A DNA stretch of 34,629 bases from Catajapyx aquilonaris. Taxonomy: Eukaryota. This document shows positions 1,778 to 30,659 of the stretch, in pieces. The stretch spans positions 1 through 34,629 of the forward strand of contig KZ539064.1 of the NCBI GenBank assembly GCA_000934665.2, in the 5' to 3' direction. The translations under genes and the position numbers were made by a program. Under the pieces are notes generated by a model. That model ran no database searches, was not told the DNA's origin, and saw only the letters and a list, made by a program, of their open reading frames with translations. Position 1 is the first letter of the stretch; every line of letters starts with the position of its first letter.

Positions 1778-3272
1778 TCATTTTCATTCATTTATAACAT
1801 CACGGCATAATCCCAGAAATCTGCGTGGGTCGACGCTTATCAATAACGTATACGTTTGCGAAATAATCAGGTCGGGTACCTGTTTCATGCCAAGCCATAT
1901 CACTGTGCCACAATGTTGCAATAACTGTATGCATTTAATTATTATGCAAATGTGTCCATCCAACTTCTCAGTTGCCGTTATTGGCCATGTAAAAAACCGA
2001 CAGGTACGACGAGGATATTTTTATGCGACGTCCGACGTGTGAATATTTGTGAAAGAGCTACTGGGTGAATGTCACAGGTAAACCTGAAGGGTGATGAGTG
2101 GCCACAGGTTTGGATTAACCCGACTGCACTTGGCGACGACACTGGTGAAGAGGCGTCTGTTAATGTCAGGCCCACTTGCAGATGCCATGCAATCATTTTG
2201 CATGCTACGACGGGCATGAAAATACCCTGCAGCATGAGAAAAATGACCAGTGTCTTATTGTCCATGCATGTTACACCTACAGATGTTCAGGCAAAAATAT
2301 GTGGTCACTGTCAGTCGAAGGAAAAGTCTCAGTCATCTGGCTCAGTTTGGCCTCCTAAGACGAGTGGGAGAAATTATATAACCAGAGTCTTGTTGGAAGC
2401 ATTGTTGACAACAACACATAATGAACTGTCCTGCACAATGGTACATGTCATGGTAAGTATTCACACAGAAAAGTAAGTTGCACGAAAGTTTTATAAACTG
2501 TGCACATTTAGGCGCAAAACAAGTGTAATGATATGTGAATGATATGATATTCACGAGTTCCATTCTCTGGCACACACGACACTCCTGACCACTTATGGGT
2601 CACAAAAATTTCACTTGCAGATTAATGACTGCATGATTTTATTTCAACCATGAATGTTTGAAACTAAAGTGACACAGATTTATCTGTCATCTGGTGTTTT
2701 CACATGGGCAGCATGCATTTGCACTTTTAAGAATGGCCCACGGGTTCAGAGTGTAGCAAAGCAGTAATGACGATGGTGCAAAACGTAAATATTTCAGTCA
2801 TTTGTTTATTGAGATTCCAATGTTTGATGCAAGATTAATTTGACCTCCCAATGATAAAGCGGCTCATGTCGGGTCCACGATGATTCCCCATTTGATATTA
2901 GGAATCGTCTACCATTGTCATTAAAGGGTTTTTAAATGGTAGGCGTCATGACTTTAATTACAATAATTTGAAACAATCAAAAAATTGCAAGTGGGCAACT
3001 TTCACACTCCAATTTTTGCATGCCAACTAGGAATCACAACCACTAAAAATACTTGTGGGTCATGACAAAACAGACCCTATAATATTATTACGCCCCACAT
3101 TAATTGGACATTCAGTTATTTCAACAGCACAGAGTGGACACAACATAAAATGACATCCCTTTGCATTCTTCCTGGGTATGTAATGGTGGGTACAGCAGAG
3201 AAAGAAAATCTGTTAAAATGTATTCCCTGCCATCAGTTTTAATATTACAAGAGAGTTTTCAAGTGTCGATTA

Positions 3273-3875
3273 TTATATGGATAAATCAATACTTCCACAA
3301 TCTTGCGGTCCATGCTTTTGGCTCAAGTGCTTCCAGAAGTTCTTGTAGTCAGCATAGACCTTCATGCAAACATGGCAAGTGAAGATCTTCTTCCCCTTCT
3401 CCCGAGTATGGGTCTGCTTGTGCTTTGTCAACAATTCGTTCTCTCCAAATGTCTTGGGACACAAGTCACACTGAAAAATTCGACCTTTATTGTGGATGAC
3501 ACTTTTGTGACTCTGTAATCCAACAAGCGACGCAAATGTCCTTCCACACATGTCGCATGCGTAGGGATGCTCTCCAGTGTGGACCCGCTCATGCTCCACT
3601 AAAGTGCTGGGATCACGGAACTCCATGGGGCAAGTGGAGCATTTGTGCGGCTTCCCCACAGTGTTGTCCACTACATGGACGACATCACGGTCTTGCTCCA
3701 AGCAAGTGGCACTGCCACTCTCCTGCTGGGCGTGATTCCCAATGTGGTTTCCAGTGTGAATAGTTTCGTGCTGCTCCAATCCTTCGGTTGAAGATGATGT
3801 CTCTCTGCGGTAATGATCAGCACTGATGCTCAGTATTTTCTTGCTTCCCACTGGAACTTCCTTTTCCTCAGAAGC
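3273..3875 (-). CDS. Terminal exon with four tandem C2H2 zinc fingers
   Basis: Open frame ASEEKEVPVGSKK...DLSI*, with canonical CxxC-x12-HxxxH spacing and a TGEHPY linker. Confidence 0.92.
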   Translation of the reverse strand, partial: ASEEKEVPVGSKKILSISADHYRRETSSSTEGLEQHETIHTGNHIGNHAQQESGSATCLEQDRDVVHVVDNTVGKPHKCSTCPMEFRDPSTLVEHERVHTGEHPYACDMCGRTFASLVGLQSHKSVIHNKGRIFQCDLCPKTFGENELLTKHKQTHTREKGKKIFTCHVCMKVYADYKNFWKHLSQKHGPQDCGSIDLSI

Positions 3876-5297
3876 CTGAAAAATGTTAAACCAGATGACG
3901 GTAGTTACAGTTACCCATCTGCATCAATCTCATAATCCGGCAACCAACATTCTATGAACATTTCTATAAACCAGTCATAATAATAACAAGAATAATTGTT
4001 CTCAGCCACTTATTATGCCCTCCCACAAAAACATGCAGGGATTTTGCTTAAATTTGCAGGGAGAAGTGTTTGCAATAACACGTCACCCTCACTGTCGTGT
4101 TTGCCTACATTGTGCGATCTTAGTTTGGAAACATCTTGAGATGGTTTGATGAAGTTATCGTCTGTTCGAACACACCATTTCATGCTGGACAGGTTACATC
4201 GTTTTTGCACAGTGTTTATATGAATTTCTGTGTGTTTATATGTGTACATTGCCTGAGTGTTTACGTGTCTGTATGTATTCAAGTCATCCTTTTCATCATC
4301 ATCCTATCCGTTATAGCCTCTGCGTGGCCTGATCAGTCACCAGAGGATTCATTATACAGGTCGTACGAGATGGCCAGGTGGATTGTACCTGGTCATCGAT
4401 GGTTACCCCATCTTGATGGGAAAATGCTGCGAGTGTAATGAATGAATGAATGAAAAGTTATAGTCTTGGACCTTCACCTGAAAAGGTAGTTTTACAATTT
4501 GTGTCTTGCTACGGACTCTTGCTTCACCTGTCTTTGCGTCCTCTTCTGGTCTCCTCTCTCATCGGGAATGGTGCGTTTGGGGGCAGGCGCTGGGACTTGA
4601 CCCAAGTCGGAGCCACTGCCACACATCCCTTCCACTCTTGTTTCCATCGCAGCAGGCTGGGCCGCTCTTACACTTTGGACTCCCTGAAACAACACACTAA
4701 AGTTTGAAACACGCTGAGCAAACATTTCTGTGCATTCACATTCCCCTCATTTCATGGCATTGCAAACTATGCTGCTCAAGTTCAATGTGGTGCTGGGTAG
4801 GCTCACGTTGCAACTAATGAAGTTGTTTGCCGTACTGCACATTCACGAGATATCATTTAAGAGTCACTCATTACTAGGGGGTTATACTGGCCAGAGTGTG
4901 GCACACAGTGTATTGAAGGTCATTTCTCTCTCATTAAACGTATGTGTACCTCTGCATGTGCTCTGTCCTGTCCAGGTCCTTCGCCAAGGGGAATAAATTC
5001 CAATGAAGGTCCAGCATCTTCCGGCAGGTCACCATCACCATGAACCAGGCTGGAGTCATCCCCGACTTGTCTCTCCTCCTCCTCCTCCTCCTCTATCGTT
5101 ATGACCACCACTCCTTGTGCCGCATCCTTCTTTGGCTGAACCACAACCTTGTCCCTGGGCCCGTGTATGAACTGGTGGCACAGGAGCTGCAGCCTGGTTC
5201 TGAAGGTGGCGTCCAGGCAGTAGACGCACCTGAACTGCCCTTCTTCGGTGGCCATCATGCTGCTTTTTGGTCCTGGTTGGGGCTGGTGGAGGCTCAT
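3273..5297 (-). CDS. C2H2 zinc-finger transcription factor, tandem paralogue copy 1 (predicted exons 5297-4950, 4683-4528, 3875-3273; ~368 aa)
   Basis: N-terminal CVYC-x13-H-x3-H finger and acidic tract. Terminal exon after tttttcag acceptor has four C2H2 fingers (CSTC..HERVH with TGEHPY linker, CDMC..HKSVIH, CDLC..HKQTH, CHVC..HLSQKH). All junctions are GT-AG and phase 0. The donor at 4949 (GTACAC) is weak and skipping of the disrupted exon at ~4118-4478 is inferred. Confidence 0.72.
4317..4456 (+). mobile_element. Short retroposed fragment with (TGAA)n tail, inserted in an exon of copy 1
   Basis: GTTATAG direct repeat at 4310-4316 and 4457-4463 (candidate TSD); aatgaatgaatgaatgaaaa tail at the 3' end. 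Confidence 0.55.
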
Positions 5298-5392
5298 CCC
5301 CTCTGCAGGTCTCCACCTGTGCACATGCCCAAACAATGTAATTCAGATGAACAACCAGGAGCCAGGCAGCATTGTTGGCTTCAGTCACTCAC

Positions 5393-5590
5393 CCGACAAC
5401 GAGAAGACTCTTCTTCAGGAGGTCCGGAGGAGGAGGAGGAAGACGAAGAAGAAAAGATGGAACAAGGCGAGACAAGCTTGGAGGGAAGATCGTATCGATC
5501 AAGACCTACCCGGCAATCGTCTATCACCTCACTAACGATACCGATAGAGTGTGTCCATCGATATCTGGCGGGATTATTCGAACCGATTCG
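5393..5590 (-). promoter_or_regulatory. Non-coding first exon and promoter of copy 1, with DRE-like sites
   Basis: GTGAGT donor at 5392. TATCGATC (~5493) and CATCGATA (~5556) are 7/8 matches to the DRE TATCGATA. The segment ccatcgatatctgg...attattcgaac is homologous to 11427-11459 upstream of copy 2. Confidence 0.5.
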
Positions 5591-6663
5591 AACTTGTGGG
5601 CCCTTCATTATAATTATTATGTATGCATAGAGTGAGGAGTTATAGAAGAGGCTGAAGAGCAATAATTAGACGATGTAGGATTACCTTGAAGCAATTTCAA
5701 AATTATCTATGAACATGCAGAATATTAGGTGGCCCAACATGACAAAAGTGAGGTCGCGGTTTAGCCTCGCTCAATTTCCAATAAATACACTGCTGACGTG
5801 ACTTCAGGATATACGTTCATTCTTCGAAAGTGACACAGAAGATTCGTCAGGACCTCCTTGCTGCTGTCCTCGCCCCTTTCCTCTGACCGGATAATATGTT
5901 TTGCTTGCCCAAATCCTGTGCACAGCCACCAGAGTTGTCTCTCTTGGAGATGGACAAACAAACATTCTTATTGCATATTGTTATCATGCTTGCATTGTGT
6001 GTACAGCACTTGGTGGCTTGCATGTGTGAAACCAACCCCTATTCATTCACCCCTGGGGGCGTGGAGGGGGCAGGGATTCACACTAGCGAAAGTCTAACAA
6101 GTCGGAGCTGCAAGCAAATCAGACTGTCACTGTGAAAGCACGTGGGATATTACAGAGGCGTTGAACAGTTCTGCGACTGCTGCAAGGTCACACATTAATT
6201 TTGTTCTATGGGTGTGCAGGCAGAAAGAGTGATCACCAGTTGCAGGCACACAGCAGGGATGAATGCTAAAGCCACAAAAATTAACACAGATTGATTTCAT
6301 GGTAAGAATATTATATGGGGCATTCCAGTACCCTCAGGAAGCGTCCAAGTCTTTATCCATATAAAATCAACTGGCACAGAAATGGTGCAACAATAAGCAA
6401 CAATGGAGTAGTACTTCACAAGTTCGTCAACTCTCCGATGTGGTTAACAAATACATATCACTTGTCTTCTATCAGGTAAAGGCAAGGTGTGTGGTGGATC
6501 ACTGGGAAATTACAGGTGCAGAAATTTTGCGACTGAGACTTCGACCTTATCCTGAATTCGTTTGCCTGCATTCTTGATGTAATCTGTTGTCGTCAGAGCC
6601 TGCAAGCAACAATTATGAGCATGGCCGAAAGCATGTTATTATTTACTGAGAGATAATAATTAC

Positions 6664-6827
6664 CTTCTATTCCTATTTTATGCCATATTGTTCCTTTGGG
6701 TCAGAGTCCGATCTGCACCATACGCTTTGAAGAGCAGTCCACAAGCATTGCACATTACATTGCCATTGTTCATTCACCACATGGATGCGGTACTTGTTAT
6801 GCAGTTGGAGCAGCACAACGGTGGTGC
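6664..6827 (-). pseudogene. Degenerate GATA-type zinc-finger exon
   Basis: Translates APPLCCSNCITSTASMW*MNNGNVMCNACGLLFKAYGADRTLTQRNNMA*NRNR, matching the GATA pattern CxNCxTxxTxLWRR..G..CNACGLYYKLHGxxRPL...QTRNRK. Bounded by an aag acceptor (6828-6829) and GTAATT donor (6663). Stops at 6774-6776 and 6678-6680. Confidence 0.85.
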
Positions 6828-6997
6828 CTTATGCAATTTTAATATATTAAGTTCTTGAGTAAATGTGTCATAACACAAGTGTGAGTCATATCTCTGTCAA
6901 GCCAGCATCACTGCAGCTTGCCTGCTCGCAAGTATACTCGAGCACTACTCTGGATGTGCAGTCATCAGCAGTCCCAACCCTCACCCTGCCTACATGG

Positions 6998-7267
6998 TTA
7001 TATCATTAATGTGCTCTTTGTTCCGTCATTCCTCCTTCCAGCAGAGTCCTGATTTGGCGGATTCATCTGACTCTTGGAGAGGAGGTGGGGTCGGATGTAT
7101 CTGATCCAGTACCACACTGTGGTGGTGCTGAGACAGAATTTCCTGGCAGTTGCTTCCAGGTTGTGACGACACGAGGAATCTCCAAACTCGAATGCGTCCA
7201 GCACCTTCCTCTTCAGGTCCATCGACTGGGTGAGGGACCCAGAGGGTTCCGCTTCCATCTGGGCAGG
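6998..7267 (-). CDS. Brinker-type HTH exon 3 of copy 2 (terminal)
   Basis: SMDLKRKVLDAFEFGDSSCRHNLEATARKFCLSTTTVWYWI resembles the Brinker DBD pattern FKLQVLESY..D.DCKGNQRATARKYNI....IQKW. Confidence 0.85.
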   Translation of the reverse strand, partial: PAQMEAEPSGSLTQSMDLKRKVLDAFEFGDSSCRHNLEATARKFCLSTTTVWYWIRYIRPHLLSKSQMNPPNQDSAGRRNDGTKSTLMI

Positions 7268-10200
7268 CTGAACGGGAAGGGAAACAAAAGCAATTCAAAT
7301 ATTGTCCAAGTTTGGCATTTGCAAAAAGTAACACACAAACGTACTTCTACATTCCTGCATATAACCCATGTTAAAACTCAATTCTTCATAGTTGTTGCGG
7401 ATCGGTTTCATCTAATTGTTATCAGAGATATTTGCTGCCAATGTTCAGTCGAACAAGTGCTTCCTTTTATTGTCTGGAAATTCCCCTCCCCCCAAATCAC
7501 TCGCTTGGTCTACCTTTGTCTCATCGCTTATTCCCTCATCAGAGTCTCGCCTTGCTTGGTCCACCTTACTCTGCCGGGCTGAGGCCATTGTTTTCGGTTC
7601 CTTCTTATTCTTTGCACTGGTTGTCTTCAGGTCATCAGCAAGGATCGTGTCCTCACTTATTCCTCCCTGCCTCTGTTCCATCATCTTAGCCCGAGCAACC
7701 CGTTTTGATCTCCTTACTCGCACTGGAACCTATTCTTAGTAACGGGTTAGCCAATTTATATTTTTTTTTGTAAAACTGTACAAGCAGTATAAATACCAGC
7801 TACACATATAATTGTTATCATAATAATATTAGTTGCCAATTTTAGGTTGAATATGCACATCCCTTGTCAATCTGGGAATCTGCATTTTTTCAGCCACTTG
7901 TTCTTTTTTCATCATCACTTTGCTTAGGTTGGTACGTACCTGACTCTGGGTAGAATGGGCAAGGAGATGGGGTTGAAGACGCCTCACCCATCGCCGTACT
8001 GTTTCTTCTGGTAGGCCAAACTCCCTTGCAGTTTCAGCGAATGTGGAATCACCTGACTTGTAGGCATGCAGCACTTTTTTCTTGAAACCCAGTGAATAAA
8101 AAGGTGACGTGCGGATCTGCAGTTTGCTTGAGTTTGGCTGCACAAGAGATAAAAAAATATCATCTCATAACTATAGAGTCTGGATTTTTAGGCCTATTTA
8201 GTTCCTTACAACAGTATGTTGTAGGGATGGTTCCGTGAAGAGATCTATCCGCTTCATAAGGGCAGGATGTGGAAAATGTAGGTTTTATAGAGCCTCAAAT
8301 GGCCTATTTCGTGGTTTTTGGGAACTTGTGGCCTTTTGTGACTTGTCTATTTGGCCTCTTTTGGGATTGTTTTTGAACTTTTTGCAGTAATTTCGGGACA
8401 TTTTGGGCCTATTCCTTATTCAGAGGCATGTTTGGTTTTTTGAATAGTTTTTTTTTTTGTGCTCCTGAAAGGACCAAAATCGTTCAGAAGTAATATTACT
8501 AATCATGTTTCCGTGACAAATACCAAATTTTTTTTTTCTAAATTTACCTCTGATAGGAAAAATATTTGGCAACATATTGTGCAAGTCTGGTGCAAGTGGA
8601 AACTGCGGCTATAAGCTGTAGAGTCCAGCAGCGCAAGTGATACTTGCTTTCACTTTATTTTGTGATTTTCTGTCAGTATATTGTTTTATTCGATTTTTGC
8701 TCTGGTTTGCGACCTCATTTTATACTTTAAGCCTATAAAATTATAATGGATTTAAAAAAATTCTGTGACATTATCCTCCATATGCCCAGGAAAGTAAACT
8801 TTTTGTGCCCATTTGAGGGTTTTTCCATGCCTACTTCGGGGTTTTCTTTGTGTCTAAAAATCCGGACTCTACTCATATAACATAACTGTCAAGTCTTTCA
8901 AGGACTGAAGCATGCAGCCGATTTATAGTCATAGTGATCTCGAGTCCTCATCCTTTTTGTTTAATAATAATAATCTGATGAGGCTTAAATTACCTCTGTC
9001 CCATTGCTTGACGTCTGATCAGCTTCTTCCTTTGGTTGGCAGGCAAGGAGGTGAGGTCGCATGGTTTCCACCCAATACCTCAGAGCAAATCTGCTTATTC
9101 CAAACTTTCTTGCAGTCGCTTTTCCATTGTGACGACATTCTGAATTGTCAAACTCGTAGACATCGAGCACCTTTTCCTTGAAGGCCAGTGAGTGGATGTG
9201 TCTTTTGTGGGTTGTCCCATTTCCAGAGGTCAGCTGCAAAAGATATTTAACAGCAGAGGAAATCTGACAAACTCAGTTGTCAAGATAACGTCACTGCTCA
9301 AGGTAGGCCTGTAGCGTAGTCTCTCTCTTTTTTTTTACATACTTTCTTCCTGTTTATGGCGTAAAATGAAACCTACCATTGTTTTTGGTTCCTTCTTCTT
9401 TGCACTGGTCGTCTTGAGGTATTCAGCAAGGATCGTGCCTCCCCGACTCTGTTCCTTCATCTTAACCCGAGCTGCCAGTTTTGATTTCCTTACTCTTGTT
9501 GGCACCTCCAACTAAACATGCAGGAATTTTACTCAAGGGGAAATTGCAAATCTGTAATCACAATAAGTCACTCCTGCTGAAGTGTGTTCTTACATTTTGA
9601 AAACTGAGATTTGAAACATCTCGAGATGGTTTTGGTGTGCTGCAGTCATCTTCTTGGATGTTGGTCTGAAAAGGAATAGTTTTAGAATTTGTGTCTTGCT
9701 GCAAACTCTCCTTTCCACCTTTCTTTGCGTCCTCTTCTGGCCTGCTCCCTCGTCTGGAATGGTGCGTTTGGTTGCGGGTTTCACAACAGCTGAGATGTCA
9801 CTCCTGTCGTCCAAGTCGGAGTCACTGCCACAAGCCTCTTCCATTGCTGTTTCCATCGCAGCTGGCTGAGCAGCTCTTACGCTGTTGACTCCCTGCAATA
9901 TAATCCGAGAGTTCAAAATAAGTTCAGTGAACTGTTCAGTCCATTTGTATTGTCCTAATTTATTGACATTCAAAACTTTGCTGCTCAAGTTGTGTGTGCT
10001 CCTAGATAAGCTTTAGCTCACCTCGCAATAATTTTAAATGAGATTATTTACTGCATATACTGTACATTATAATTCATATTACAGTCGCTCATTACTAGGG
10101 ATTACATTTAAATAGACCATACTGGCATGGCCATGCAGTATATCGACGGATGGCCATTTTCATTTCTCTGTTATTAACTGATGACCCTTACGTCCACACG

Positions 10201-11183
10201 TGCCCTGTTCCTTCCAGGCCAGCCGTCAATGGAAATGAATTCGAATGAAGGTTCAGTGTCTCCTGGCAGGCCACCATCACCTCCAGAGTTCAAGCTGGAG
10301 CCTTCCTTCCTCTCAGGCGACTGCACTTCCTGAAACCAGGCAGCAACGGTTATGACATCTCTATGCAAAGAAGGGCATGGCCTAAACACTACAGGATAAT
10401 CACACGTGGCCTACATTCAGCTGATTTGCTTCAGCCAGTTGTGCAACAGCTAGAGCTCACTGGCATTATTTGTACCGCGATTCCTCCTCTTCTGAAAGCC
10501 TCAGTGACTATCCCGTGTTGCAAAATTACCCTTGTTATTGCAGGGCATGTAAGCAACTTCAGCCTCGTGCATCCAGCCTTAATCATTTTCGTTGTCACTC
10601 TAAATTCTTTTAATTTTAATTCTCTACAAAATGTTTCTGATAACCATGCAATAAAATTGTAAGCCAGTTTTTCAACACGACTTAACTTGTCTAACGCATA
10701 CACTTGAACTCAGATCGCAATTATTGTTATGTCTGTCATGTTGTTGATATTCCCATTCCGTTGATGATAACAGGTTCAAGGATGAAAGCCCGACCCTTTG
10801 GATATTGGACTTACAAAATTGGGCCACAACCCTCCACACATTACATGCAATCTTTGGACAGCTCTACAGAACCCTGTGGTCCCAAGGGATGTGGTCGGCC
10901 ATCAAGCAGGAAAATGCGATTGAACCTGGTCGTGTACCTGATCCCCTGAGTGTCTCTCTGTCTCTGCCTCCTCCGTTGTTACGACCACCCTTCCACCGGT
11001 CCATCCTTCCTCTTCCTCCTCCTGAGGCTCGACCTTCACAGTGTCTGAAGGGCCATGGATGAACTGGTGGGCCCTCAGCTGGATCCTGGTCCTGAAGGTG
11101 GCGTCCAGGCAGTACACGCACCTGAACTCCCCTTGTTCGGTGACCATGCGGCTTGGTCCATGCTGTGGCTGGTGGAGGCTCAT
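6998..11183 (-). CDS. C2H2 plus triple Brinker-DNA-binding-domain protein, tandem paralogue copy 2 (predicted exons 11183-10938, 10329-10192, 9892-9719, 9665-9594, 9511-9377, 9233-8994, 8137-7940, 7729-7514, 7267-6998; ~562 aa)
   Basis: All nine exons are multiples of 3, GT-AG flanked, stop-free and phase 0. Boundaries are mirrored in copies 1 and 3. N-terminus MSLHQPQ..FRCVYCLDATFRTR..HQFIHGP is shared with copy 1. The donor at 7513 is the least certain. Confidence 0.75.
7940..8137 (-). CDS. Brinker-type HTH exon 2 of copy 2
   Basis: YSLGFKKKVLHAYKSGDSTFAETAREFGLPEETVRRWV; cag acceptor and GTACGT donor. Confidence 0.85.
8174..8871. mobile_element. Non-autonomous TIR element in a copy 2 intron
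   Basis: Inverted ends tagagtctggatttttag (8174) and ctaaaaatccggactcta (8871). The equivalent intron in copy 3 is only ~135 bp. No clean TSD. Confidence 0.6.
8994..9233 (-). CDS. Brinker-type HTH exon 1 of copy 2
   Basis: HSLAFKEKVLDVYEFDNSECRHNGKATARKFGISRFALRYWV; cag acceptor and GTAATT donor. Confidence 0.88.
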
Positions 11184-12459
11184 CTTCTCTGCAGGAAGAC
11201 GAGGCCTGTGCACATCCACAACAATGTATTCAGATGCACATGAGAAGGCAGCGCAGTTGGTTCCCACACTCACCAGACAAGAAGAAGACTCTTCTCTTCA
11301 GGTCCAGTGGAGTAAGATGAGATAAGAGAAGGGGGGGAAAAAATAGATAAGATAAAGGAAAGTAAAGAGATGCAGACGTACCCAGAAATCGCCCAACATA
11401 TCCCTCCGAATTAAACAGATAGGGCATCCACCGATATCTAGGGAAATAATATTCGAACTGGTCAACTGGTTTAACAAGGAAGCTGCTCTTTGGAGGTTCA
11501 CAAACAGGCTATCAGCTTCCTCTGCCTTTCAGCTTAACCGCCAGTTATGCCACTTGATGGTAGCCAATCTCACTGCCGCCGTTTAAGGCCCCCACTTAAA
11601 TTATTATTAAAGAAAATGCTAATGACCAACCTTGGTAAAAAGGGTGCTGCTCATTGAACTTCTTCACAAGTTGTCCACAACACAAATGATGATGACAGTC
11701 AGTTTTACGACAAACCTAACCCTATTTCATTCATCACTAGGGTTCATACTTAAAATGCTCGTAGTGACATACGTATGTTCACAGGGTATATAGAGAGTTG
11801 GCAATTTTTGCGTCTCTGCCATGACCCTTCTTACCTCCCCTTCATTTGAACCCTTTTTCCCCTCCGGAGTAGTCATGCCAGGTCGGTGCCAGTTGGAAAA
11901 GACATGCAGCAGAGTCCACCCAATGCGCAAGGAGAAAATTCCACCACTCCTGCAAAATCTTACATTTATTTTGTTCCACACGTGTACAGAGAGAGGAGGG
12001 ATTCAATCAGCTGCAAGTACTCAGAAAAATCAAAAAACAGTTTGTTTGCATAGCAAGAATGACACTTACTGGACAAGTGAGCATTTCAGCACAGGTCAGA
12101 AAGCATCCAAGTCTTAACATCACATGATCTGTATGAAATACAAAGGCACGACAGTGGTACAACATTGAACGAGAAACTAACATTGGAATGAGCAATCAGA
12201 AGGGTTCGCACCTCGGTAATATGGTCGACATGCATTTGGTTTATATTTATTTATTCTGTAAAAGGGCTGCACAACTTTTGCTATTCGGGGAGATTGCACT
12301 TTGAGGTTATTACATCTGTGTGGTGCACAAGTGTTTTGTAGATGGGATACATTGTCACTCCATGTCCATAGAAATGACCCCAAGTATTGTATGGGAAGTC
12401 GCTCGAAGGAGATTATGCTCTTTGGGCAGAACCATTCATAATCAATCAATCAATATTAC

Positions 12460-15400
12460 CAGTGGTATTGGTTCCTTCTTCTTTGCACTAGATGTCTTGG
12501 TATCATGGGCAACAATTGCGTCCTCAAGGTCTCCCTGAATCTGTTCCTTCATCTTGATCCGAGCAACCTGTTTTGATTTCCTCACTCTTGCTGGCACCTC
12601 CACCTAAACATGAACGGATTTGGATGGAATAATATTGGGGTTTATTAAAATTCAAAAGGTATTGGTATGTTGAGGTGGGAAAATGCATATTTCCCAGCCA
12701 ATGCAAAGGTTGGGTTTCAGATGGGTCGCAGGGTAGGGAACAACGCATATGTGAATGCACGGAGGAACGGGTGGGGGTGGAGGTATGCATATGATTGGGG
12801 GATGGGCATCGTCACTGGCTACAAGTACGAAGCAATTAAAAATGTGGCGGGCACTGCAGCAGGCCGCAGGCCTAGAAAAAGCGAGCAAAGGCAGTGGATC
12901 TCTAAGCCTGCGCCATAGAAAAATGCGAGCGTTCTAGTAATGCATTTTAATCAGATAATGCCTAACAACCCTGTTGTGTGGAGCAGCGAATAAAAGTTTG
13001 TCCTGGAAGAACTAGTTGGTAAATTTTTATTCTCAAACCTCAGACTGACAAAGGAAGTTTGCGTCTTTGTGGCACTAGTCCTACGCAACCCGGAAAATGT
13101 TCATTACTGTGACAGAATTCCAAAGTTGCAGTTGCCCCATGTGGCGGGGCAAGTGCGTCACTGTGCAACACGTGCATATTTTAATTATTTTTAGCAGCAC
13201 CCACGTAGATGAATGTTGTACAATAGGTCATTTTGAAAGCCAATAAAAGGTAAGGTCCATTACTTTTGTGGTGGCATCCTGTTCTGTATTACAAGCATTA
13301 ATGATGAACAAGTTGCATTTAATTGTTATCAGAAACATTAGCTGCCAATGTTTGGTCAGATACGCACGTCCCTGGTTAATCTGGGAATGGGCATTTCCGA
13401 TGAGTCACTTGCTTACCCTTATTGTTTCATGACTTGTTCTCTCATCAGAGTCTTGCCTTAATTAGTACGTACCTGACTCTGGGCTGGTCGGACAAGGAGA
13501 CGGGGTCAGAGAGGCATCACCCAAGACCCCACTGTTGCTGTGCTCAATCCAAACTTCCTTGCAGTTCCAGGGATGCTGTGACGACATGTGGAATCACCAC
13601 ACTGGTAGGCCTCCAGCACTTTTTTCTTGAAATCCAGGGAGTAACGATATGACGTGCGGATTTTCAGTTCGCCTGAGTTTGGCTGCAGAAGAGGTGGAAA
13701 GCAAACATCTCGGTACATAACTGTACCTATCCAACATTGATCTCTTTCTTTCCGCAGCACTCAAGTATGAAGCAGATTTAGAAATTATTCTGAGTGACCT
13801 TGAGTGATGAGGCTTACCTTTGTCCCATTTTTTGACATCTTAAGAGCGTCTTCCTTTGGCTGGCAGTCATGGAGGTGAGGTCGCATGGTTTCCACCCAAC
13901 CCCTCAAAGAAGATCTGCTTACTCCAAACTTCTTTGCAGTTGCGGTTACATTGTGACGACATTTGGAGTGGTCAAACTCGAAGGCATCGAGCACCTTTTC
14001 CCTGAAGGCCAGAGAGTAGGGCAGAATGCAGCCGCTTGGCTTACTGGTTCTCGCTTCCCCAGAGGTTGGCTACAATAGATAGTTAGAAGCAGAGGAAATA
14101 TTACAACTTCAGTTGTCAGTTTGACGTCACTGCTCAAGGCATTGTTTCTTTGTTTTTACATGTCTTCCTGTTCATGACAGAAAATGAAACTTACCATTGG
14201 TTTTCGTCCCTTGTCCTTGGAACAGGATGGTTCGAGGTCTTCAGCAAGGATCGCGTCCTCACTGCCTCCCTGACGCTGTCCCTTCATCATAACCGGCGGA
14301 GCAACCAGTTCTGGCTTCCCTACTCTCGCTGGCTCCTCCACTAAACATGCAGGGATTTCACCCAAATTGGTAGGGACAAACGCAAGATTGGAATCACAAG
14401 GAGTCATGGAGTGTGCTCTTACATTTTGCAACCTTCCTTTTGAAACATCCCGAGATGGGTCTGAATGGTTGCCAGACCAGTTTCTCAATCCCTTCCCAAT
14501 AGAAAGGGGTGCCCGGTTGACAGCACCAGGCCACCAGTCACGCACTGCCTTCTTCACCTCATCGTCGCTTCGGAAATGCTGACCTGCCATGTCTGCTTTC
14601 AGGGCTCTGAATAAGTGATAGTCTGTGAGGGCTAGGTCGGGACTATAGGGTGGGTGAGGAAGAACTTCCCAGTCGTATCCATTCAGCAAAGCCATGGTGT
14701 CCCTCGATGTGTCCGGACGGGCGTTGTTGTGGAGAAGGATGACCCCAGCAGCGAGCAATCCTGGTCGTTTCCACCTGATGGCCTTCTGCAACTTCGCCAG
14801 GGTCACTGCATATCTCTCCGAATTGATAGTCGCGACAGGATTGCTCACTGCTGGGGTCATCCTTCTCCACGACAACGCCCGTTCGCACACATCGAGGGAC
14901 ACCATGGCTTTGCTGAATAGATACGACTGGGAAGGTCTTCCTCACCCACCCTGTAGTCCCGACCTAGCCCTCACAGACTATCACTTAATTCAGAGCCCTG
15001 AAAGCAGACATGGCAGGTCAGCATTTCCAAAGCGACGATGAGGTGAAGAAGGCTGCGTGACTGGTGCTGTCAACAGGGCACCCCTTTCTATTGGGAAGGG
15101 ATTGAGAAACTGGTCTGGCGATGGGATAAGTGCGTTCTTCGGGGTGGAAACTATGTAGAAAAGTACATGTCCATTGTCCTCATGTACCCTGTAAGTTTCG
15201 TCATTTGTGTTCACACAGAATAAACGTTACAGCCTTGGAGACCTTACTTTCTGATCACTCCTCGTATTAACATTCACTCATCATCACATTTTGAATGATA
15301 ATAATGACATGGACACACAGTATATCGAGTAGTGGCAATTTCTGTGTCTTTCTCATTAACTGCCCCTTACGTCCGAATGCGCTCTGTTCTCCTGTCCAAG

Positions 15401-15538
15401 CCAGTCTTCAATGAATTTGAATAAAGATTCTGCATCCCCTGGCAGGTCATCACCAACACCGCGGTTCAGGTTGGACTCTTCCTCCTCCTCCTTCTCTTGA
15501 TCCCCTCCTCCTTGACGTCTCTCCTCCACCTCCACCAT
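12460..15538 (-). pseudogene. Tandem paralogue copy 3, probable pseudogene (exons 15538-15371, partial ~14470-14423, 14340-14195, 14069-13818, 13682-13473, 12603-12460)
   Basis: Exons are homologous to copy 2, including two Brinker DBDs. It lacks the N-terminal finger. A mariner insertion with deletion removed the GVxSVRAAQPAAMET exon. The 146-nt linker exon is frameshifted. There is an in-frame TGA at 13506-13508. Confidence 0.78.
14471..15264. mobile_element. Rearranged mariner element: head-to-head inverted duplication of the 3' half of the transposase
   Basis: Transposase motifs TINSERY, KRPG, VILLHxNARP, LPHPPYSPDLA.TDYHLF. Arms 14471-14763 and 14836-15119 are reverse complements. The right end CCTTACTTTCTGATCACTCCTCG is followed by TA (15265-15266). 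The left end is missing. Confidence 0.92.
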
Positions 15539-15666
15539 GGTTACGTCGTCAGCCTCCTCCTCCTCTGGCAGCAAGAAGAATGAAGACTCCAAAACTAGGG
15601 AATAATGGAAAAAGATGAAGAGATGTCACAGTGTGTCGACCACGTGTCGACGGACGACGATGATCG

Positions 15667-15674
15667 TATCGATA
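15667..15674. promoter_or_regulatory. DRE (DREF-binding) core promoter motif upstream of copy 3
   Basis: Perfect TATCGATA ~130 bp upstream of the ATG at 15538, in the same gatcgtatcgat context as in the copy 1 promoter. Confidence 0.5.
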
Positions 15675-16509
15675 AACACTGACAATCATCGCCCATCTGT
15701 ATCGGTCTTTAGCCCCGCCCCCACCCCACCCCTTCCCGCGCTGTTGTCAGATGGCTCCAGGCGGTGTGGCCGTGACCGGGCACAGACACAGTGACTATTG
15801 TCTGACCAGAAGCTATAGAGAGTTGGTGGGTTTTTCCCATCAAGACAAAATCCCCCACGCCACCCCACCCCCTCGAAAATGCCCAACAATATATTAATCC
15901 GCAAAAGGGTTCGGAGAGATCAGTTTAAAAGGAGACGTTGCCAGACGTTGCCATAATGGGGAACTAGCCTTGGTCTGGGATTTGGGATATTTGTTCATAA
16001 CTAGCTAGCCCATGCCTGTAAACATACATTCCATCACTCTGTTGCATCAAAATGACATTACTGGATAAATTACGACACATTTAAAAGTGCCTTCAAAATT
16101 GGCGGGAAAAACGGGGCAGCCGGGTGGTGCCAATCGAAAGGGTACACTGAAATGCCTGGTTGACTGCGAGATATGAGGAATTTGACTTTGAATTAACCGC
16201 GGACACGACGGAAAGCATTCGCAAGGCGGCTGTAGGCCATCGAGGTGGAGAAGGGGGGGCCTTCATGTGCCGAATTCGGGTGACAGATAATTCCGACCTG
16301 GTGGCATCACTGCCATGTACAAAGCGGCTTGAGCGACCTGGAATAAATACGCGCCCCGGCCGCTATCTTGCTCACGGAATGGGACGGTTGCTAACAACAG
16401 CGAAGCATTTTACGACAATGACGGGGCGCGTTCTATAACATCATTTTTGCGTTCATTTCACTTCGCGTGACGTCAACATTTTCTAGGGAAACAGTGACGT
16501 CAGTCTCAG

Positions 16510-17498
16510 GAGATCAACCGTTACAAATAACTAGATTGGTCTGTTCAATAAGAACTGGGTCCCCATACATATATTACAATGGTTACAAAATACAATGGAC
16601 TAATGACAGTTGTTCATTATGTAACTACAATGAAGAATTCAACCTGCATCATCTTCTATACACATGTCCTTTCTTTATAGCACAACGAAGTATACTAGAG
16701 GATATGCCACGTTTCCCCCCGAATAAAACACATCAGATAACAAATAACTTGCACTCATCAAGCCTATATACATTGGAAACTATTTTTAGCACAGTAATCC
16801 GTAAACTGAGGTTTTGTGATATTACGCTTTAAAGGGACTCTCCACTCAAAATACAAGTTGGGTTCTAAAAATCGGGCAAAACAATACGATTCCAACGACA
16901 CCAATAATTATTTTTTCCGATGAACGATGACCCCAGGGGAACCGGATCATTATGCGCATTTTGGCGATACGGTTGCAACCGTATGCTACTGTACACGACA
17001 CCCTCGCCGCCTGGCGGCAGAAATGGGAAATAGGGGCGATTCTGGCTCTGCCCGCGGCAGTTGCTTGTTGAGAATCGCATCTGGTTCCGCCCGGTTCCAC
17101 TCTGGTGGCGTCGCCACCTGCGCCAAGCCCTTTGAGCGCGGTTTTCGAACGACACACTTCCAGCCTTCGCCCTGGCCGTACCGTTCGTCTCTCAGAAAAA
17201 CTGCTTATACCCTCGGAATCAAGATTTTTTGCCCGATTTTTAGAACCCAACTTGTATTTTGAGTGGAGTGTCCCTTTAAGCTCTCTTTCTTCTCTCTCCC
17301 CCCCCCCCTTTTCCTATTGTTTAGTATATGCGATTTTTTTTGTTTAATGAACACCCCATACTACTACAGGGAGTACAATATTATGTACCATATGCAAGTG
17401 TAATGTATTTAATGTAAACATTGCGGGGACTCCCCCCTTATGTAAAGGCGGAAGCCTACCAGGGGAAAAGAAATAAACTAAACTAAACTAAACTAAAC
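16510..17498 (+). mobile_element. 5'-truncated non-LTR retrotransposon (LINE): ORF2 C-terminus, 3' UTR and (TAAAC)5 tail
   Basis: SIRTG...CSLCNYNEEFNLHHLLYTCP is the CCHC motif typical of LINE ORF2 ends. Stop at 16830-16832, AATAAA at 17472, tail at 17474-17498. The 5' boundary is approximate. Confidence 0.8.
16833..17275. mobile_element. MITE with TTAA target duplication (Kolobok/T2-like), nested in the LINE
   Basis: ~49-bp TIR agggactctccactcaaaatacaagttgggttctaaaaatcgggcaaaa. TTAA at 16829-16832 and 17276-17279. AGG...CCT termini. Confidence 0.9.
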
Positions 17499-20208
17499 AT
17501 GATGAGCTAACATCTGGTACGGGATCTGGAGGGTGGCCGGTGTCTGGAGGGATTGGTGCGAGCTCGTCCATATCAGCTTGTTCATTTCCTCCAGCTGAGG
17601 CCCGGCATCTGATATGGTCTGCATGACGGCGCCTACTGACCCCGTCTACATCAACTCGATAGGATAACTCCCCAGTCCTCTCCCGCACACTCCCTGCTGT
17701 CCATCCTTTTTCCATTGGGTTCTTGACCCAGACGTCGTCTCCTATCCCAAACTCTCTGCTCTTGGTGATGGCCCGATCGTGTTGGTTCTTATTGTACCAC
17801 GCCGTGGCAACCATGGTGCGGATTGGGTTTGGCCGCATACGGTCAAGGGCAGTGAGTAATCTCCTCCCAATCAGTAGCTCCGATGGCGGTCGCCCGGTAG
17901 CCTTTGATGGTGTATTGCGGTGCATGAGGAGGAAGCGACAAAGCTGCTGGTGCCACTTGCCAGGACTGATGCCTGCGGCATCCATGTGCATTTTTAGGGT
18001 TTGTACAAAGCGTTCAGCGAGTCCGTTCGTTTTGGGATGGTAAGGGGACCCGTGTATCAGTTGCACATTGTTTCTAGCACAGAATCGTTGGCAGGTTTCA
18101 CTGGTAAATTGGGTGCCGTTATCACATACCAGCTGCAGGGGAACCCCGTGTTGACTGAATACCTCTCTAAGTTGTTCTATGGTGTTCTCTGCTGTAATAC
18201 TATGCATGCGTTTCACCTCAGCCCACTTGGAATACGCATCCACGATCGCCAACCAGTGTGCTCCTTGATAAGGTCCGGCAAAGTCCATGTGTACGCGTTC
18301 CCACGGTCCGTCAGGTGTAGTCCATGGATACAGGGGAAGTTCCGGAGCAGATGGCCTGGAGGCTTGGCAAGACTCGCAGCGGCGTACGTGGTCTTCTATG
18401 TGTTGGTCCACGTTCGGCCACCAGACTGTTTGTCGCGCTATGGCTTTCATGGCCTCCATGCCCGGGTGCCCTCGATGAAGATGCTCGAGTACCTCGGATT
18501 GCAGGGGACTCGGGATGACCATGCGATTGCCCCAGAGAAGAACGTCAGCTTCGTAGGAAAGTTCTTGACGTCTCGTCGCGTAAGCTCTGTATTCTGCTGG
18601 TATGTCGGTGGGCCATTTGGACTCGATCCAACGACGTACCTGTTGGATGTGGGCATTCCTGCGCGATAAGGTAACGAGACGCTTTTCCGACAGGTAGGGA
18701 TCTCCGGCCATCCTCCCTGCGATACGACGCATGTTGACCACGGGAACAAGGTCTTCGGATGTTACGGGTAGACGTGACAGTGCGTCGGCTATGGCATTTT
18801 CTACCCCCGGCCTGTATTTGATGTCGAAGCTGTATTCCTTGAGCAACCATTCCCAACGCACGAGCCTATCATTTGCGATCTTGTTCAGGTCGGATGTCGC
18901 TCCATTGAAGATGCGCTCTAGTGGCTTGTGGTCGGTGATCAGGGTGAAGCGGCGTCCGTAAAGATACTGCCGAAATTTGCGGACTCCGTAGATGACAGCT
19001 AGAGCTTCTCTGTCTATAGGAGCATAGCGAAGTTCCGAGGTGGAGAGTTTCTTGGACCCATAGGCGATGGGACGACGAGTTCCGTCTGACTGATCCTGCA
19101 TGAGGACTGCGCCGAGACCCGTGGCTGAGGCGTCAGTTTCGAGAAACAAAGGCATGGACTCATCATACATGGAGAGAACGGCTGCGTTAGCTATGAGTTC
19201 CTTGACGGCATGAAATTGGCGTGCCTCTACCTCACTCCATCTCCACTTCTGACTGCGTCCAGCCAGAAGATGTAGCTGATCACATATCCCGTGTAAACCC
19301 GGCAGAAACTGGTCGTGAAATCCGACCGAGCCCAAGAACGACCTAAGTTCCTCCTGATTCTGTGGCTCAGGAAGATTAAGTATGGCGTCCACTTTCTGGG
19401 TCGATGGCTCGATACCAGTGGCTGAGATAGTTCGGTCCAGAAACTCCACCGATGACTGGAGAAACCTACACTTATCGCGGCTGACTTTAATCCCCGCATC
19501 GGCCAGTCTTTGGAGTACTGTGCGCAAGTTGACGAGATGCTCTTCGAGAGTTCTGCCCGACACTATTATGTCGTCTTGATAAACTGCTGTCATGGAGATC
19601 CCTCTCAGCAGCTCAGACGAGTACCTTTGGAATTCAGCGGCCGCTGTCTCCAACCCGAAAGTCATTCTCGTGTAGCGGTAGAAACCTTCTGGAGTGGTTA
19701 TGGTAAGGTAGTTGCGAGATTCCTCATCGACTGGTAAGGTAAGATAGGCGTCCTTGACATCGATGACCGAGAAAGCCTTACCGCCCGCCATGGGTGCAGT
19801 GATGTCCTCGAAGCGAGGTATCGCGTGTTGGTCGAGGACCATGGCCGGATTGATGGTCTTACTGAAATCTCCGCAAATGCGTATGGATCCGTTCTTTTTT
19901 CGGACGATGACAATAGGCGTGGCCCAGTCAATGCGGGTGTGGCGAGGATCAACCTGTTCAAGGACTCCCTCGTTGACCAGCCGCCGTAATTCCTCCTTAA
20001 GGGGTGACCGCAACGGGAAGGACACACGTCGATGCTCTAGCTTGCGCGGCATGGCATCCGGGCGGAGCTTGATACGGACGGTGCGGTCATTGATGATCCC
20101 AATGCTGTTTTGAAAGAGGACGTCGAAGTCGTCTAGGAGCGTTCTCACCTCGTTCGTCTTGATCCGGAGTGACCCTCTTGATGCGAACTCCTGAGGGCAT
20201 GGGCACAT
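17488..20208 (-). CDS. pol: Pol: reverse transcriptase, RNase H, integrase
   Basis: RT motifs WATPIVIV.KKNG.IRICGDF, MTFGL, YQDD. RNase H motifs ETDAS..GLGAVL, REALA, TDHKPL. Integrase H-H-CESC, HMDFAGP, DNGTQF, NGLAER. The stop codon is supplied by the LINE tail. Confidence 0.96.
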   Translation of the reverse strand: MCPCPQEFASRGSLRIKTNEVRTLLDDFDVLFQNSIGIINDRTVRIKLRPDAMPRKLEHRRVSFPLRSPLKEELRRLVNEGVLEQVDPRHTRIDWATPIVIVRKKNGSIRICGDFSKTINPAMVLDQHAIPRFEDITAPMAGGKAFSVIDVKDAYLTLPVDEESRNYLTITTPEGFYRYTRMTFGLETAAAEFQRYSSELLRGISMTAVYQDDIIVSGRTLEEHLVNLRTVLQRLADAGIKVSRDKCRFLQSSVEFLDRTISATGIEPSTQKVDAILNLPEPQNQEELRSFLGSVGFHDQFLPGLHGICDQLHLLAGRSQKWRWSEVEARQFHAVKELIANAAVLSMYDESMPLFLETDASATGLGAVLMQDQSDGTRRPIAYGSKKLSTSELRYAPIDREALAVIYGVRKFRQYLYGRRFTLITDHKPLERIFNGATSDLNKIANDRLVRWEWLLKEYSFDIKYRPGVENAIADALSRLPVTSEDLVPVVNMRRIAGRMAGDPYLSEKRLVTLSRRNAHIQQVRRWIESKWPTDIPAEYRAYATRRQELSYEADVLLWGNRMVIPSPLQSEVLEHLHRGHPGMEAMKAIARQTVWWPNVDQHIEDHVRRCESCQASRPSAPELPLYPWTTPDGPWERVHMDFAGPYQGAHWLAIVDAYSKWAEVKRMHSITAENTIEQLREVFSQHGVPLQLVCDNGTQFTSETCQRFCARNNVQLIHGSPYHPKTNGLAERFVQTLKMHMDAAGISPGKWHQQLCRFLLMHRNTPSKATGRPPSELLIGRRLLTALDRMRPNPIRTMVATAWYNKNQHDRAITKSREFGIGDDVWVKNPMEKGWTAGSVRERTGELSYRVDVDGVSRRRHADHIRCRASAGGNEQADMDELAPIPPDTGHPPDPVPDVSSSCLV

Positions 20209-21490
20209 CGAATGCTTTCATCCACTGCAGACTGAAAGCGTCGTCATCGTCTACCACCGTGATGGGAAGGCATTTTTTACGACCATTCCATTCGACATCG
20301 GCGTCAAACTGCTCGACGGTGTTCAGAGGCCGGTGCCCATAGCCGGTGAGAGTGGCCACAGGAGTGAGAGGAGGTTCACCCAAATAGCGCCACTTCTGAG
20401 TACTGATGACCGTATGCGAAGCAGCCGTGTCCCATTCCATCTTGCAGACACGCCCGTTGATGGTGCACTTGGTCATGGCTCGCCCAGCGCCTACCTTCGT
20501 GACAGTGTGAACTCTGGTTCGACCAGTACCGACCTTCTTGACCGGGTGGAATACTTCAGGCTCGCTGTCTGATGACTCAGCGGTGTCATTGTCATTCACT
20601 TTCTTGACCTGTTTTCTGGTGGATGTTCTTGCAGGGGATGCCGGGTTTTTTGACTTGGTGGAGAGACATACGGAGGCGTAGTGCCCTGTTTTTCCGCATT
20701 TGTGACAAACGGCGTTGGAAGCAGGACACTCCCTGCGACGGTGATTTGCTTCACCACACCAGATGCAATTTTTGTTATCATCTAAACTTCTGACCTTGTC
20801 CCTTTGACGGAGTTTGATCTTGGACACAGTGGCTGGAGCCTCAGTCGACATCTCCCTCTGGTCAAGCTCCATCTGCAACGCCAGGTCCGCCAGAGTGGTG
20901 AAGTCTCGCTGCTTACTCTCACCCGTGTCCGTGCGTTTGCAGGAGGATGGCCAGCGCTGACGAGCTTCAAGAGCGAATTTGCCGAACTTGACCCCCGACC
21001 AGAAGCGCTCGCGTAGTACCAGGGACATGTCCTCCTGTGTGTAGAAAGGACATTGGCAGACGAGTTGGCGAAGGCGGTCAATGTAGGTGGCGATGGTCTC
21101 GTTCGGGCGGCGATCCGCCCTCCAGAACTCGTCCCAGGCCCCGAATGGAGTTTGAGCTGGTCTAAACGCTTCCCGGCACGTTTTGATGAGCTGCTCATAC
21201 TGCACTTGACGTAAAGGAGTGGGGTTGAGTCTTCTCTGTAGCACAGCAGTGTTTTCTCCTCCCACATACGCGATGATGAGCGCGCGACGTGCGTTGGCAG
21301 AGTCCTCGTCTTCACCATCGAGTCCTAACACTTCGAACCGAGCTAGGAGAACTGTCTCATAATTTTCCCAGGGTGTCTTGGGATCATAAGCGTATATTGT
21401 GAAACGCTCCTTGCCCCGCTGCACTTGTGCGGCCCGTGCGGCCCGTGCTGCAACCGCAGCTACAGCATCGGCCTCTTCCTGATTGTTCAT
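20087..21490 (-). CDS. gag: Gag plus aspartic protease
   Basis: Twin knuckles CIWCGEANHRRREC and CHKCGKTGHYASVC; protease active site MEWDTAASHTVI. Confidence 0.93.
   Translation of the reverse strand: MNNQEEADAVAAVAARAARAAQVQRGKERFTIYAYDPKTPWENYETVLLARFEVLGLDGEDEDSANARRALIIAYVGGENTAVLQRRLNPTPLRQVQYEQLIKTCREAFRPAQTPFGAWDEFWRADRRPNETIATYIDRLRQLVCQCPFYTQEDMSLVLRERFWSGVKFGKFALEARQRWPSSCKRTDTGESKQRDFTTLADLALQMELDQREMSTEAPATVSKIKLRQRDKVRSLDDNKNCIWCGEANHRRRECPASNAVCHKCGKTGHYASVCLSTKSKNPASPARTSTRKQVKKVNDNDTAESSDSEPEVFHPVKKVGTGRTRVHTVTKVGAGRAMTKCTINGRVCKMEWDTAASHTVISTQKWRYLGEPPLTPVATLTGYGHRPLNTVEQFDADVEWNGRKKCLPITVVDDDDAFSLQWMKAFDVPMPSGVRIKRVTPDQDERGENAPRRLRRPLSKQHWDHQ

Positions 21491-30657: not shown

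Positions 30658-30659
<2 letters not shown>

Follow-up and report, generated by a model that had tools for sequence, protein, structure and literature searches.

A tandem gene cluster in Catajapyx aquilonaris whose shared trunk is spliced to C2H2 fingers in one copy and predicted to join Brinker-type helix-turn-helix exons in another

A window of 34,629 nucleotides (nt) from Catajapyx aquilonaris (assembly GCA_000934665.2, contig KZ539064.1, positions 1 to 34,629) carries, within the described region 3273..15674, three copies of a gene for a predicted DNA-binding protein, and in one of them the N-terminal part, here called the trunk, is spliced in frame to an exon encoding C2H2 fingers. This copy, copy 1, is an expressed gene. 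Copy 2, as far as the sequence can tell, keeps an intact predicted gene plan in which the trunk would be followed by two basic linkers and up to three Brinker-type helix-turn-helix (HTH) exons, and copy 3 is a pseudogene, although its 3' end continues to be transcribed. I consider it fairly probable that the three form a small tandem cluster, which arose when a lineage-specific, intron-rich gene encoding a nuclear DNA-binding protein underwent segmental duplication, the copies then meeting these different fates. Counts of copies and exons refer to the window. All coding pieces lie on the minus strand, as read from a six-frame listing of open reading frames (ORFs) and from the sequence itself, and exon borders were set at AG/GT sites that keep the frames open.

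5297-3273, minus strand, copy 1
11183-6998, minus strand, copy 2
15625-12442, minus strand, copy 3

Transcript evidence comes from the contigs of one public run (X1; 0.22 of sampled words) over 2500-16500, and stretches without contig cover were not taken as evidence. I take X1 to be RNA-derived because its joints are intron-less and strand-consistent: the four canonical joints read CT..AC on the plus strand, which is GT..AG on the minus strand, and all fall exactly at borders predicted from the sequence. Copy 1 is made up of the following pieces, with lengths in amino acids (aa) and the untranslated region abbreviated as UTR:

5298..5440, minus strand, 5'UTR with a short predicted intron, splice sites read by eye; similar to 11184-11320 of copy 2
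4950..5297, minus strand, coding exon 1, 116 aa from the ATG at 5297, with an atypical C-x2-C-x13-H-x3-H finger, a hydrophobic and acidic stretch and the motif GDLP..FI..RAH
4528..4683, minus strand, trunk exon GVQSVRAAQPAAMET..., 52 aa, phase 0-0, both junctions in one X1 contig
4013..4480, minus strand, part of the last intron, in which the PSRDVS exon (~4147-4109) and the beginning of the linker exon survive as dead remnants, from tblastn and sequence reading
3273..3875, minus strand, terminal exon, 200 aa plus stop, encoding four C2H2 fingers (Pfam; number counted by eye), acceptor 3875 used in the contig

A single X1 contig of 433 nt reads 5177-4950, 4683-4528 and 3875 onward, and both of its joints (4950|4683 and 4528|3875) are GT..AG at the predicted sites, the donor GT of exon 1 lying at 4949-4948. 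This bears out the proposal of the initial annotation, made from the letters of this DNA, that the C2H2 exon is spliced to the trunk. The product (5297-4950, 4683-4528, 3875-3273) is 368 aa long; a phase-0 donor meets a phase-0 acceptor here, which keeps the fusion in frame. The terminal exon matches the Pfam family zf-C2H2 at 61.6 bits against a cut-off of 25.2, and by eye it contains the four fingers that had been ascribed to this C-terminus, with TGEHPY-type linkers. The PSRDVS remnant, which in copy 1 reads PSQDVS, lies inside the last intron and is skipped by the contig. A candidate SUMO-interaction motif was dropped: the VVVITIEEEEEEE stretch of copy 1 fits a pattern for such motifs, but the strict pattern is absent in copy 2.

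The copies are related by collinear duplications at 68-80% identity, far above chance, as seen when the nucleotide sequence is compared with itself:

4456-5039 (copy 1) against 9644-10281 (copy 2), 68%
5158-5440 (copy 1) against 11050-11320 (copy 2), 76.6% (blastn)
7405-9629 (copy 2), in three pieces, against 13312-14458 (copy 3), 69-74%
10101-10312 (copy 2) against 15283-15487 (copy 3), 70%
7585-7731, 9374-9529, 12457-12621 and 14194-14332, four occurrences of a unit of ~140 nt

The trunk exons that had been said to unite these co-oriented copies were found where expected, on the minus strand throughout. Within the window, only copies 1 and 2 have the MSLHQPQ...CVYC finger exon (at 5297-4950 and 11183-10938, respectively; 60% identity, tblastn expectation value (E) 6e-28). 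The same holds for the GVxSVRAAQPAAMET exon (4683-4528 and 9892-9719; tblastn E 3e-14), and the GDLP..FI..RAH motif is present in all three copies (E 4.5e-6 for copy 1 against copy 2, 1e-4 for copy 2 against copy 3). The PSRDVS piece, also claimed for all three, was found in each (9665-9594 in copy 2, ~4147-4109 in copy 1 and 14458-14423 in copy 3; the protein matches alone are weak, E ~0.1), but in copy 1 it is the dead intron remnant. A shared promoter sequence is real for copies 1 and 2, whose 5'UTR and upstream stretches are alike (the 76.6% match above, or 75% for the 5'UTR stretch in a global alignment), but copy 3 shares none of it. By tblastn the window contains four linker exons and five HTH exons, the latter matching at E 6e-9 to 7e-30. 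Every modelled exon is phase 0-0, with a length that is a multiple of three.

For copy 2, nine exons can be modelled, all of them open, phase 0-0 and AG/GT-flanked:

10938..11183, minus strand, exon 1, the finger exon, 82 aa, predicted junction
10192..10329, minus strand, exon 2, 46 aa, GGLPGD..FEFI..NRAR, predicted splice sites, phase 0-0
9719..9892, minus strand, exon 3, 58 aa, GVNSVRAAQPAAMET..., predicted
9594..9665, minus strand, exon 4, the PSRDVS exon, 24 aa, predicted
9377..9511, minus strand, exon 5, basic linker (RVRKSK ... KKKEPK), 45 aa, with paralogues at 7729-7586, 12603-12469 and 14341-14195
8994..9233, minus strand, Brinker-type HTH exon 1, 80 aa, BrkDBD 32.8 bits
7940..8137, minus strand, Brinker-type HTH exon 2, 66 aa, HTH_28 33.5 bits, BrkDBD 16.8 bits
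7445..7729, minus strand, second linker exon, ending at TGA 7447-7445 or spliced on through the in-phase GT donors 7564 or 7513
6998..7267, minus strand, Brinker-type HTH exon 3, 89 aa plus stop (7000-6998), from homology and X1 contig cover

The second linker exon leaves two outcomes for this chain. If it stops at TGA 7447-7445, the protein would have 495 aa and two HTH domains; if it is spliced from donor 7564 or 7513 to 7267-6998, there would be three such domains in 545 or 562 aa. The X1 contigs over HTH exon 3 differ from it by one base, at 7094, so that their source may be a close paralogue rather than copy 2.

Judged by profile and structure comparison, the HTH exons are true Brinker-family domains. 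All five are mutually homologous, with 38-64% identity to the first in alignment. Two of the five pass the gathering cut-off (23.4 bits) of the Pfam family BrkDBD (PF09607), namely 9233-8994 in copy 2 (32.8 bits) and 14069-13818 in copy 3 (23.8 bits); the others reach 17.9, 16.8 and 14.4 bits, and one of them (8137-7940) fits HTH_28 better than BrkDBD (33.5 versus 16.8 bits). HTH exon 1 matches the DNA-binding domain (DBD) of Drosophila Brinker (PDB 2GLO) by phmmer with E 2.1e-5 over residues 11-57, the ATARK..W signature included. Its AlphaFold model (predicted local distance difference test, pLDDT, 72.4) has four helices, and Foldseek with this model returns 2GLO first (probability 1.00, E 0.037, 37% identity). 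Searched alone against longer proteins, HTH exon 1 yielded 27 candidates, none significant, and a profile of all five exons was needed. With this profile, 6477 candidates yielded 105 proteins at E<=10, of which the strongest reached 1e-22; PF09607 is listed for 103 of them, and none has zf-C2H2, GATA or a transposase catalytic domain listed. Matches to named brinker proteins are 45-50% identical, and all named matches examined are hexapod, many of them called brinker or Brinker DNA-binding domain-containing.

The single DBD that the initial annotation gave for Drosophila Brinker is true of Drosophila only, and annotated brinker proteins of other insects carry two or three. Counted with Pfam BrkDBD, there are three in a mayfly protein and two in each of an ant protein, a sawfly protein and the planthopper 'transcriptional repressor brinker'; counted with my own five-exon profile, the 105 matches have three domains in 6 cases, two in 91, one in 7 and none in 1. 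The available text of a 2025 preprint on brk (10.1101/2025.02.07.637038) reports up to three Brinker DBDs in basal insects, with the triple form seemingly ancestral, and describes brk as mostly intron-less and hexapod-specific. Two- and three-domain Brinker arrays are already known in non-dipteran insects, and that part of the finding is not new.

The relationship of the window exons to these proteins was examined in a tree of 68 rows and 58 columns, comprising 63 DBDs from 32 of the 104 domain-bearing proteins (all of the 6 triples and 7 singles, and one double in five) and the five window exons. The latter fall on one side of a branch (ultrafast bootstrap 91; 86% of bootstrap trees) with very long tips, and they are not interleaved with hexapod DBD1, DBD2 or DBD3. 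Within the group, copy 2 exon 1 pairs with copy 3 exon A and copy 2 exon 2 with copy 3 exon B, and copy 2 exon 3 joins the latter pair. It seems from this that the Brinker-type array either grew independently or diverged greatly, a pattern that long-branch attraction could mimic. Compared with hexapod Brinker, the window thus has the same DBD fold and signature and likewise several DBDs per protein. However, it has one DBD per phase-0 exon where brk is mostly intron-less in the available text of the same preprint (10.1101/2025.02.07.637038), its finger trunk and basic linker exons are without counterpart, its HTH exons form a separate long-branch group of which two in five reach the Pfam cut-off, and its gene models contain no CtBP or Groucho motifs.

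Copy 3 consists of these pieces:

15371..15625, minus strand, first recognisable piece, an acidic stretch and DDLPGD..FKFI..NRAH, from sequence and tblastn
~14470..15223, two mariner-type transposase fragments in opposite orientation (head to head), from ORFs with weak DDE_3/Transposase_1 matches, boundaries by eye
14195..14458, minus strand, PSRDVS piece, cut short, then a linker exon that lacks 1 nt immediately behind its acceptor (a deletion), from sequence and tblastn
13818..14069, minus strand, Brinker-type HTH exon A, BrkDBD 23.8 bits, 61-69% identical to copy 2 HTH exon 1
13473..13682, minus strand, Brinker-type HTH exon B, with a premature TGA at 13508-13506 and a donor used in a contig
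11984..12603, minus strand, terminal linker exon and 3'UTR, from an X1 contig

Within the window tblastn found neither a finger exon nor a GVxSV exon for this copy, and the mariner fragments sit where the GVxSV exon and the 5' half of the PSRDVS exon would be. Copy 3 is classed as a pseudogene because of these lesions and because its exons are no more like those of copy 2 (77-80% identity) than the adjacent introns are (79-81%). Its 3' end is nonetheless transcribed: a 778-nt X1 contig running to 11984 has a GT..AG joint at 13473|12603 that connects HTH exon B to the terminal linker exon. Of the two Brinker HTHs previously assigned to copy 3, both exist as homologous exons and A passes the Pfam cut-off, but B carries the premature TGA and the copy as a whole is disrupted. 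Two observations belong beside this copy. One mariner fragment reads in frame into the PSRDVS remnant, producing a misleading open frame of 261 aa (14156-15223). Directly upstream of the truncated copy, 15576-16500 has the highest X1 contig depth of the region (45-68; 318 at 15989) with many base differences, and is probably a repeated, expressed element.

A further domain lies downstream of copy 2:

6681..6896, minus strand, pseudo-exon of a GATA finger, interrupted by an in-frame TGA (6776-6774); a spliced intron of 64 nt comes next, at 6663-6600

This GATA finger is a dead pseudo-exon. It lies 3' of the copy 2 stop codon (7000-6998), and to reach 33.4 bits, above the Pfam GATA cut-off of 26.8, it needs the in-frame TGA to be read as X. 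An X1 contig with a GT..AG joint at 6664|6599 removes the short intron behind the pseudo-exon, and no X1 joint links the piece to copy 2. The transcribed stretch, 6316-6896 on the minus strand, is either the 3'UTR of copy 2 or a separate dead gene. Of the C-terminus originally drawn for copy 2, three Brinker HTHs and a GATA remnant, the three homologous HTH exons are present in the predicted chain, and the GATA remnant lies behind the stop codon.

Among the contigs of this one run, none of the four canonical joints connects two copies. Joints that do appear to cross (7268>13545, 7269>13919/13925, 9193>13549, 9842>13549 and 13643>8997) have non-canonical ends and short sides and were rejected as evidence of cross-copy splicing; further ones with inserted letters were likewise read as paralogous contigs mapped piecewise. 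Since, in addition, 93 of the 127 X1 contigs are only 90-99% alike to the region, these contigs suggest that the organism has further paralogues. Three pieces that share a depth of 7.11 would agree with the transcript of a paralogue in which three HTH exons follow one another, but this was too indirect to be counted.

The trunk has no detectable relative. An exhaustive phmmer search returned 0 matches in 1.84 billion protein representatives, a word search of longer proteins with the trunk exons gave 115 candidates of which none was significant, and at E<=0.1 Pfam offers no family for the two trunk exons of copy 1. For the finger exon of copy 2 it gives a weak match to zf-C2H2_4 (E 0.088), and the N-terminus matches neither KRAB nor ZAD in Pfam. 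The description of the family as lineage-specific is therefore reasonable and stands. Neither a fold model of the trunk (pLDDT 50.2 from a two-sequence alignment, not usable, its beta-beta-alpha around the finger being unreliable) nor the ESM Atlas, where the nearest clusters are small C2H2 proteins with recognition below the usual level, gave more than a lead. In the literature searched on Brinker and BrkDBD I found no description of a Brinker-domain gene with this trunk or with a C2H2-ended sister copy.

Ratios of nonsynonymous to synonymous substitution (dN/dS), obtained by the Nei-Gojobori method on single exons and noisy at 36-80 codons each, are 0.36 for the finger exon and 0.46 for the GVxSV exon between copies 1 and 2, and 0.32-0.46 for the linker exons. 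Old HTH duplicates, copy 2 HTH exon 3 against exon 1 and BrkA, give 0.36-0.39 at a synonymous divergence (dS) of ~1.3. By these values the family as a whole has evolved under constraint. When copy 2 is compared with copy 3, the ratio is 0.84 for HTH exon 1 against exon A and 0.91 for HTH exon 2 against exon B.

How the cluster may have formed can be sketched as follows. In the ancestral gene each domain would have occupied a phase-0 exon of its own. The gene would have comprised the N-terminal trunk, made up of the atypical C2H2-like finger, the hydrophobic-acidic stretch, GDLP..FI..RAH and the GVxSVRAAQPAAMET exon, together with basic linkers and Brinker-type HTH exons. After tandem duplication copy 2 would have retained this plan, its protein having two Brinker domains in 495 aa or three in 545 or 562 aa. 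Copy 1 would have lost its Brinker part, as an insertion split the PSRDVS exon and the first part of the linker exon decayed, both of which can still be made out in the last intron; its trunk, now spliced to the four-finger exon, would present the same front part with another DNA-binding class. Copy 3 would have lost its 5' end, been broken by transposons and acquired a stop codon, and would be decaying. The uniform exon phase may have made the domain swap possible. The products of copies 1 and 2 could be nuclear sequence-specific factors with a common trunk cofactor and different target sites, and two or three Brinker-type HTHs joined by basic linkers might read a composite site.

Several points weigh against this scenario. 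The kind of run that X1 represents is unrecorded. Among its contigs no canonical joint falls within the copy 2 coding chain 11183-6998 and the copy 2 trunk has little or no cover, which means that copy 2 could be silent or spliced differently. The GDLP segment has a dN/dS of 1.5 between copies 1 and 2, the noise of short exons affects all the ratios, and 0.84-0.91 for copies 2 and 3 also fits weak constraint on copy 2 itself. DNA binding, nuclear localisation and an effector role of the trunk are predictions from sequence, and the copy 1 and copy 2 models contain no known corepressor motif, neither CtBP (PMDLSLG) nor Groucho (FKPY) nor eh1. With respect to brinker orthology this lack is weak evidence, because basal insect brk is also reported to be without CtBP and Groucho recruitment motifs in the available text of 10.1101/2025.02.07.637038.

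Some of these points would suit a locus in which copy 1 alone works, the Brinker arrays of copies 2 and 3 are decaying leftovers and the modularity is a by-product of duplication followed by deletion or fusion. Besides the missing joints in copy 2, this agrees with the ratios for copies 2 and 3 and with exons no better kept than introns, with a second linker exon in copy 2 that lacks the donor used by the first and runs into a stop, and with the dead GATA exon downstream. However, copy 2 has neither stop nor frameshift in 495-562 codons and has AG/GT sites at nine exons, while copy 3, over the same divergence, gained a nonsense codon, a frameshift and transposon insertions. The ratios of 0.32-0.46 for the older HTH and linker duplicates also speak against it, as do the contigs over copy 2 HTH exon 3, even if their one base difference may betray a close paralogue, and I regard it as unlikely. 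Quite improbable, to my mind, is a complex locus of the lola or mod(mdg4) type, in which trunk exons would be spliced, alternatively or by read-through, to Brinker, GATA and C2H2 cassettes: copies 1 and 2 both begin with an ATG exon of their own behind a similar 5'UTR, and none of the four canonical joints of this one run connects two copies, the crossing ones being non-canonical and short-sided. Such a locus would nevertheless account for the co-oriented units, for the phase 0-0 of all exons, by which any exon can follow any other in frame, for linker exons that are terminal in copy 3 (contig) or internal in copy 2 (predicted), and for the spliced transcript past the copy 2 stop and over the GATA pseudo-exon.

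The HTH exons might also come from a transposase of pogo/Passer type, as remains or as a domesticated form, and not from a relative of the Brinker factor. In the available text of PMC7386202, Passer transposases and POGK carry BrkDBD together with HTH_Tnp_Tc5; the locus is rich in transposons, and one HTH exon scores higher on generic transposase-type HTH models than on BrkDBD. Yet the 30 ORFs scanned contain no match to HTH_Tnp_Tc5 or DDE_1, the 105 best profile matches are brinker-type with no transposase catalytic domain listed, and the exons sit within a spliced, phase-matched gene structure, all of which makes this origin very doubtful. The segmental duplication of a lineage-specific gene with diverging copies remains the reading I prefer. 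Its boldest form, in which the window represents a new Brinker-family branch with independent DBD multiplication, and modular duplicates wired an orphan trunk to Brinker HTH, C2H2 and formerly GATA domains, I put forward only tentatively, as a possibility that is rather more doubtful than probable.

Drosophila BTB factors join one N-terminal domain either to C2H2 fingers, as in lola and ttk, or to Pipsqueak-type HTH repeats, as in psq, bab and ribbon. The resemblance is that one N-terminal module occurs, depending on the paralogue, with C2H2 fingers or with transposase-related tandem HTHs. However, the window trunk is not a BTB domain (it has no Pfam match), its HTHs are of Brinker and not of Psq type, and its swap took place between immediate tandem duplicates. 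KRAB-ZNF and ZAD-ZNF clusters, to which the locus had been likened, are similar in being tandem, fast-evolving paralogues with a shared N-terminus and variable DNA-binding ends. The window differs in having no KRAB or ZAD match, two finger-trunk copies, and variation in domain class instead of finger number, and with two candidate working genes it does not approach the scale of such clusters. In the KRAB-POGK protein, too, an effector domain is joined to a BrkDBD-type HTH (available text of PMC7386202). Outside insects, 42 BrkDBD-annotated genes are reported for Takifugu flavidus and one BrkDBD-annotated gene for Hydractinia (available text of PMC4263296 and PMC9926710, respectively); they resemble the window in being lineage-specific, multi-copy Pfam BrkDBD genes, a likeness at the level of annotation.

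The features described by the initial annotation are largely real. Its interpretation was right in kind, in that the family is lineage-specific, modular and turning over, but it overstated the scale and how new the case is: arrays of several Brinker domains were already known, the GATA finger is dead, and copy 3 has become a pseudogene. Exon shuffling among interchangeable modules finds the uniform phase 0-0 that it needs, but the window shows a single swap, of the Brinker part for the C2H2 exon. The presence of one decaying copy agrees with turnover. What the locus appears to have caught is a transcription factor changing its DNA-reading part, with the old exons lying as wreckage in an intron and a sister copy keeping the old plan. 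Such before-and-after pairs are rare, and this one could be used to test how a DBD swap rewires targets while the cofactor-binding part stays constant. It would also add an intron-rich, multi-domain and highly diverged branch to the Brinker-domain family, which is treated as a hexapod innovation in the available text of 10.1101/2025.02.07.637038. As an instance of regulators changing their DNA-reading part it is tidy and not unprecedented.

Elsewhere, the window has short GT..AG introns and 10 N, and a search of the whole of it against Rfam gave 0 matches. On the minus strand at 17488-21538 lies a Ty3/Gypsy-like long terminal repeat retrotransposon with open gag-protease (483 aa) and reverse transcriptase-RNaseH-integrase (909 aa) frames, matching Pfam RVT_1, RT_RNaseH, Integrase_H2C2 and rve; it looks young or intact. 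Next to it, an inverted repeat of ~635 nt with 96% identity (21629-22264 against 23149-22519) flanks an AT-rich stretch with a 167-nt tandem duplication (22356-22663), and is possibly another mobile element. Open frames at 24373-26633 on the minus strand, one with a sub-threshold match to MPAB_Lcp_cat (mpaB/rubber-oxygenase-like; 22.4 bits against a cut-off of 23), are a probable host gene. Perfect or near-perfect trinucleotide microsatellites occur at 1688-1777 (TAA)30, 30659-30744 (ATA)29, 31381-31458 (TAT)26 and 31715-31760 (ATG)15.

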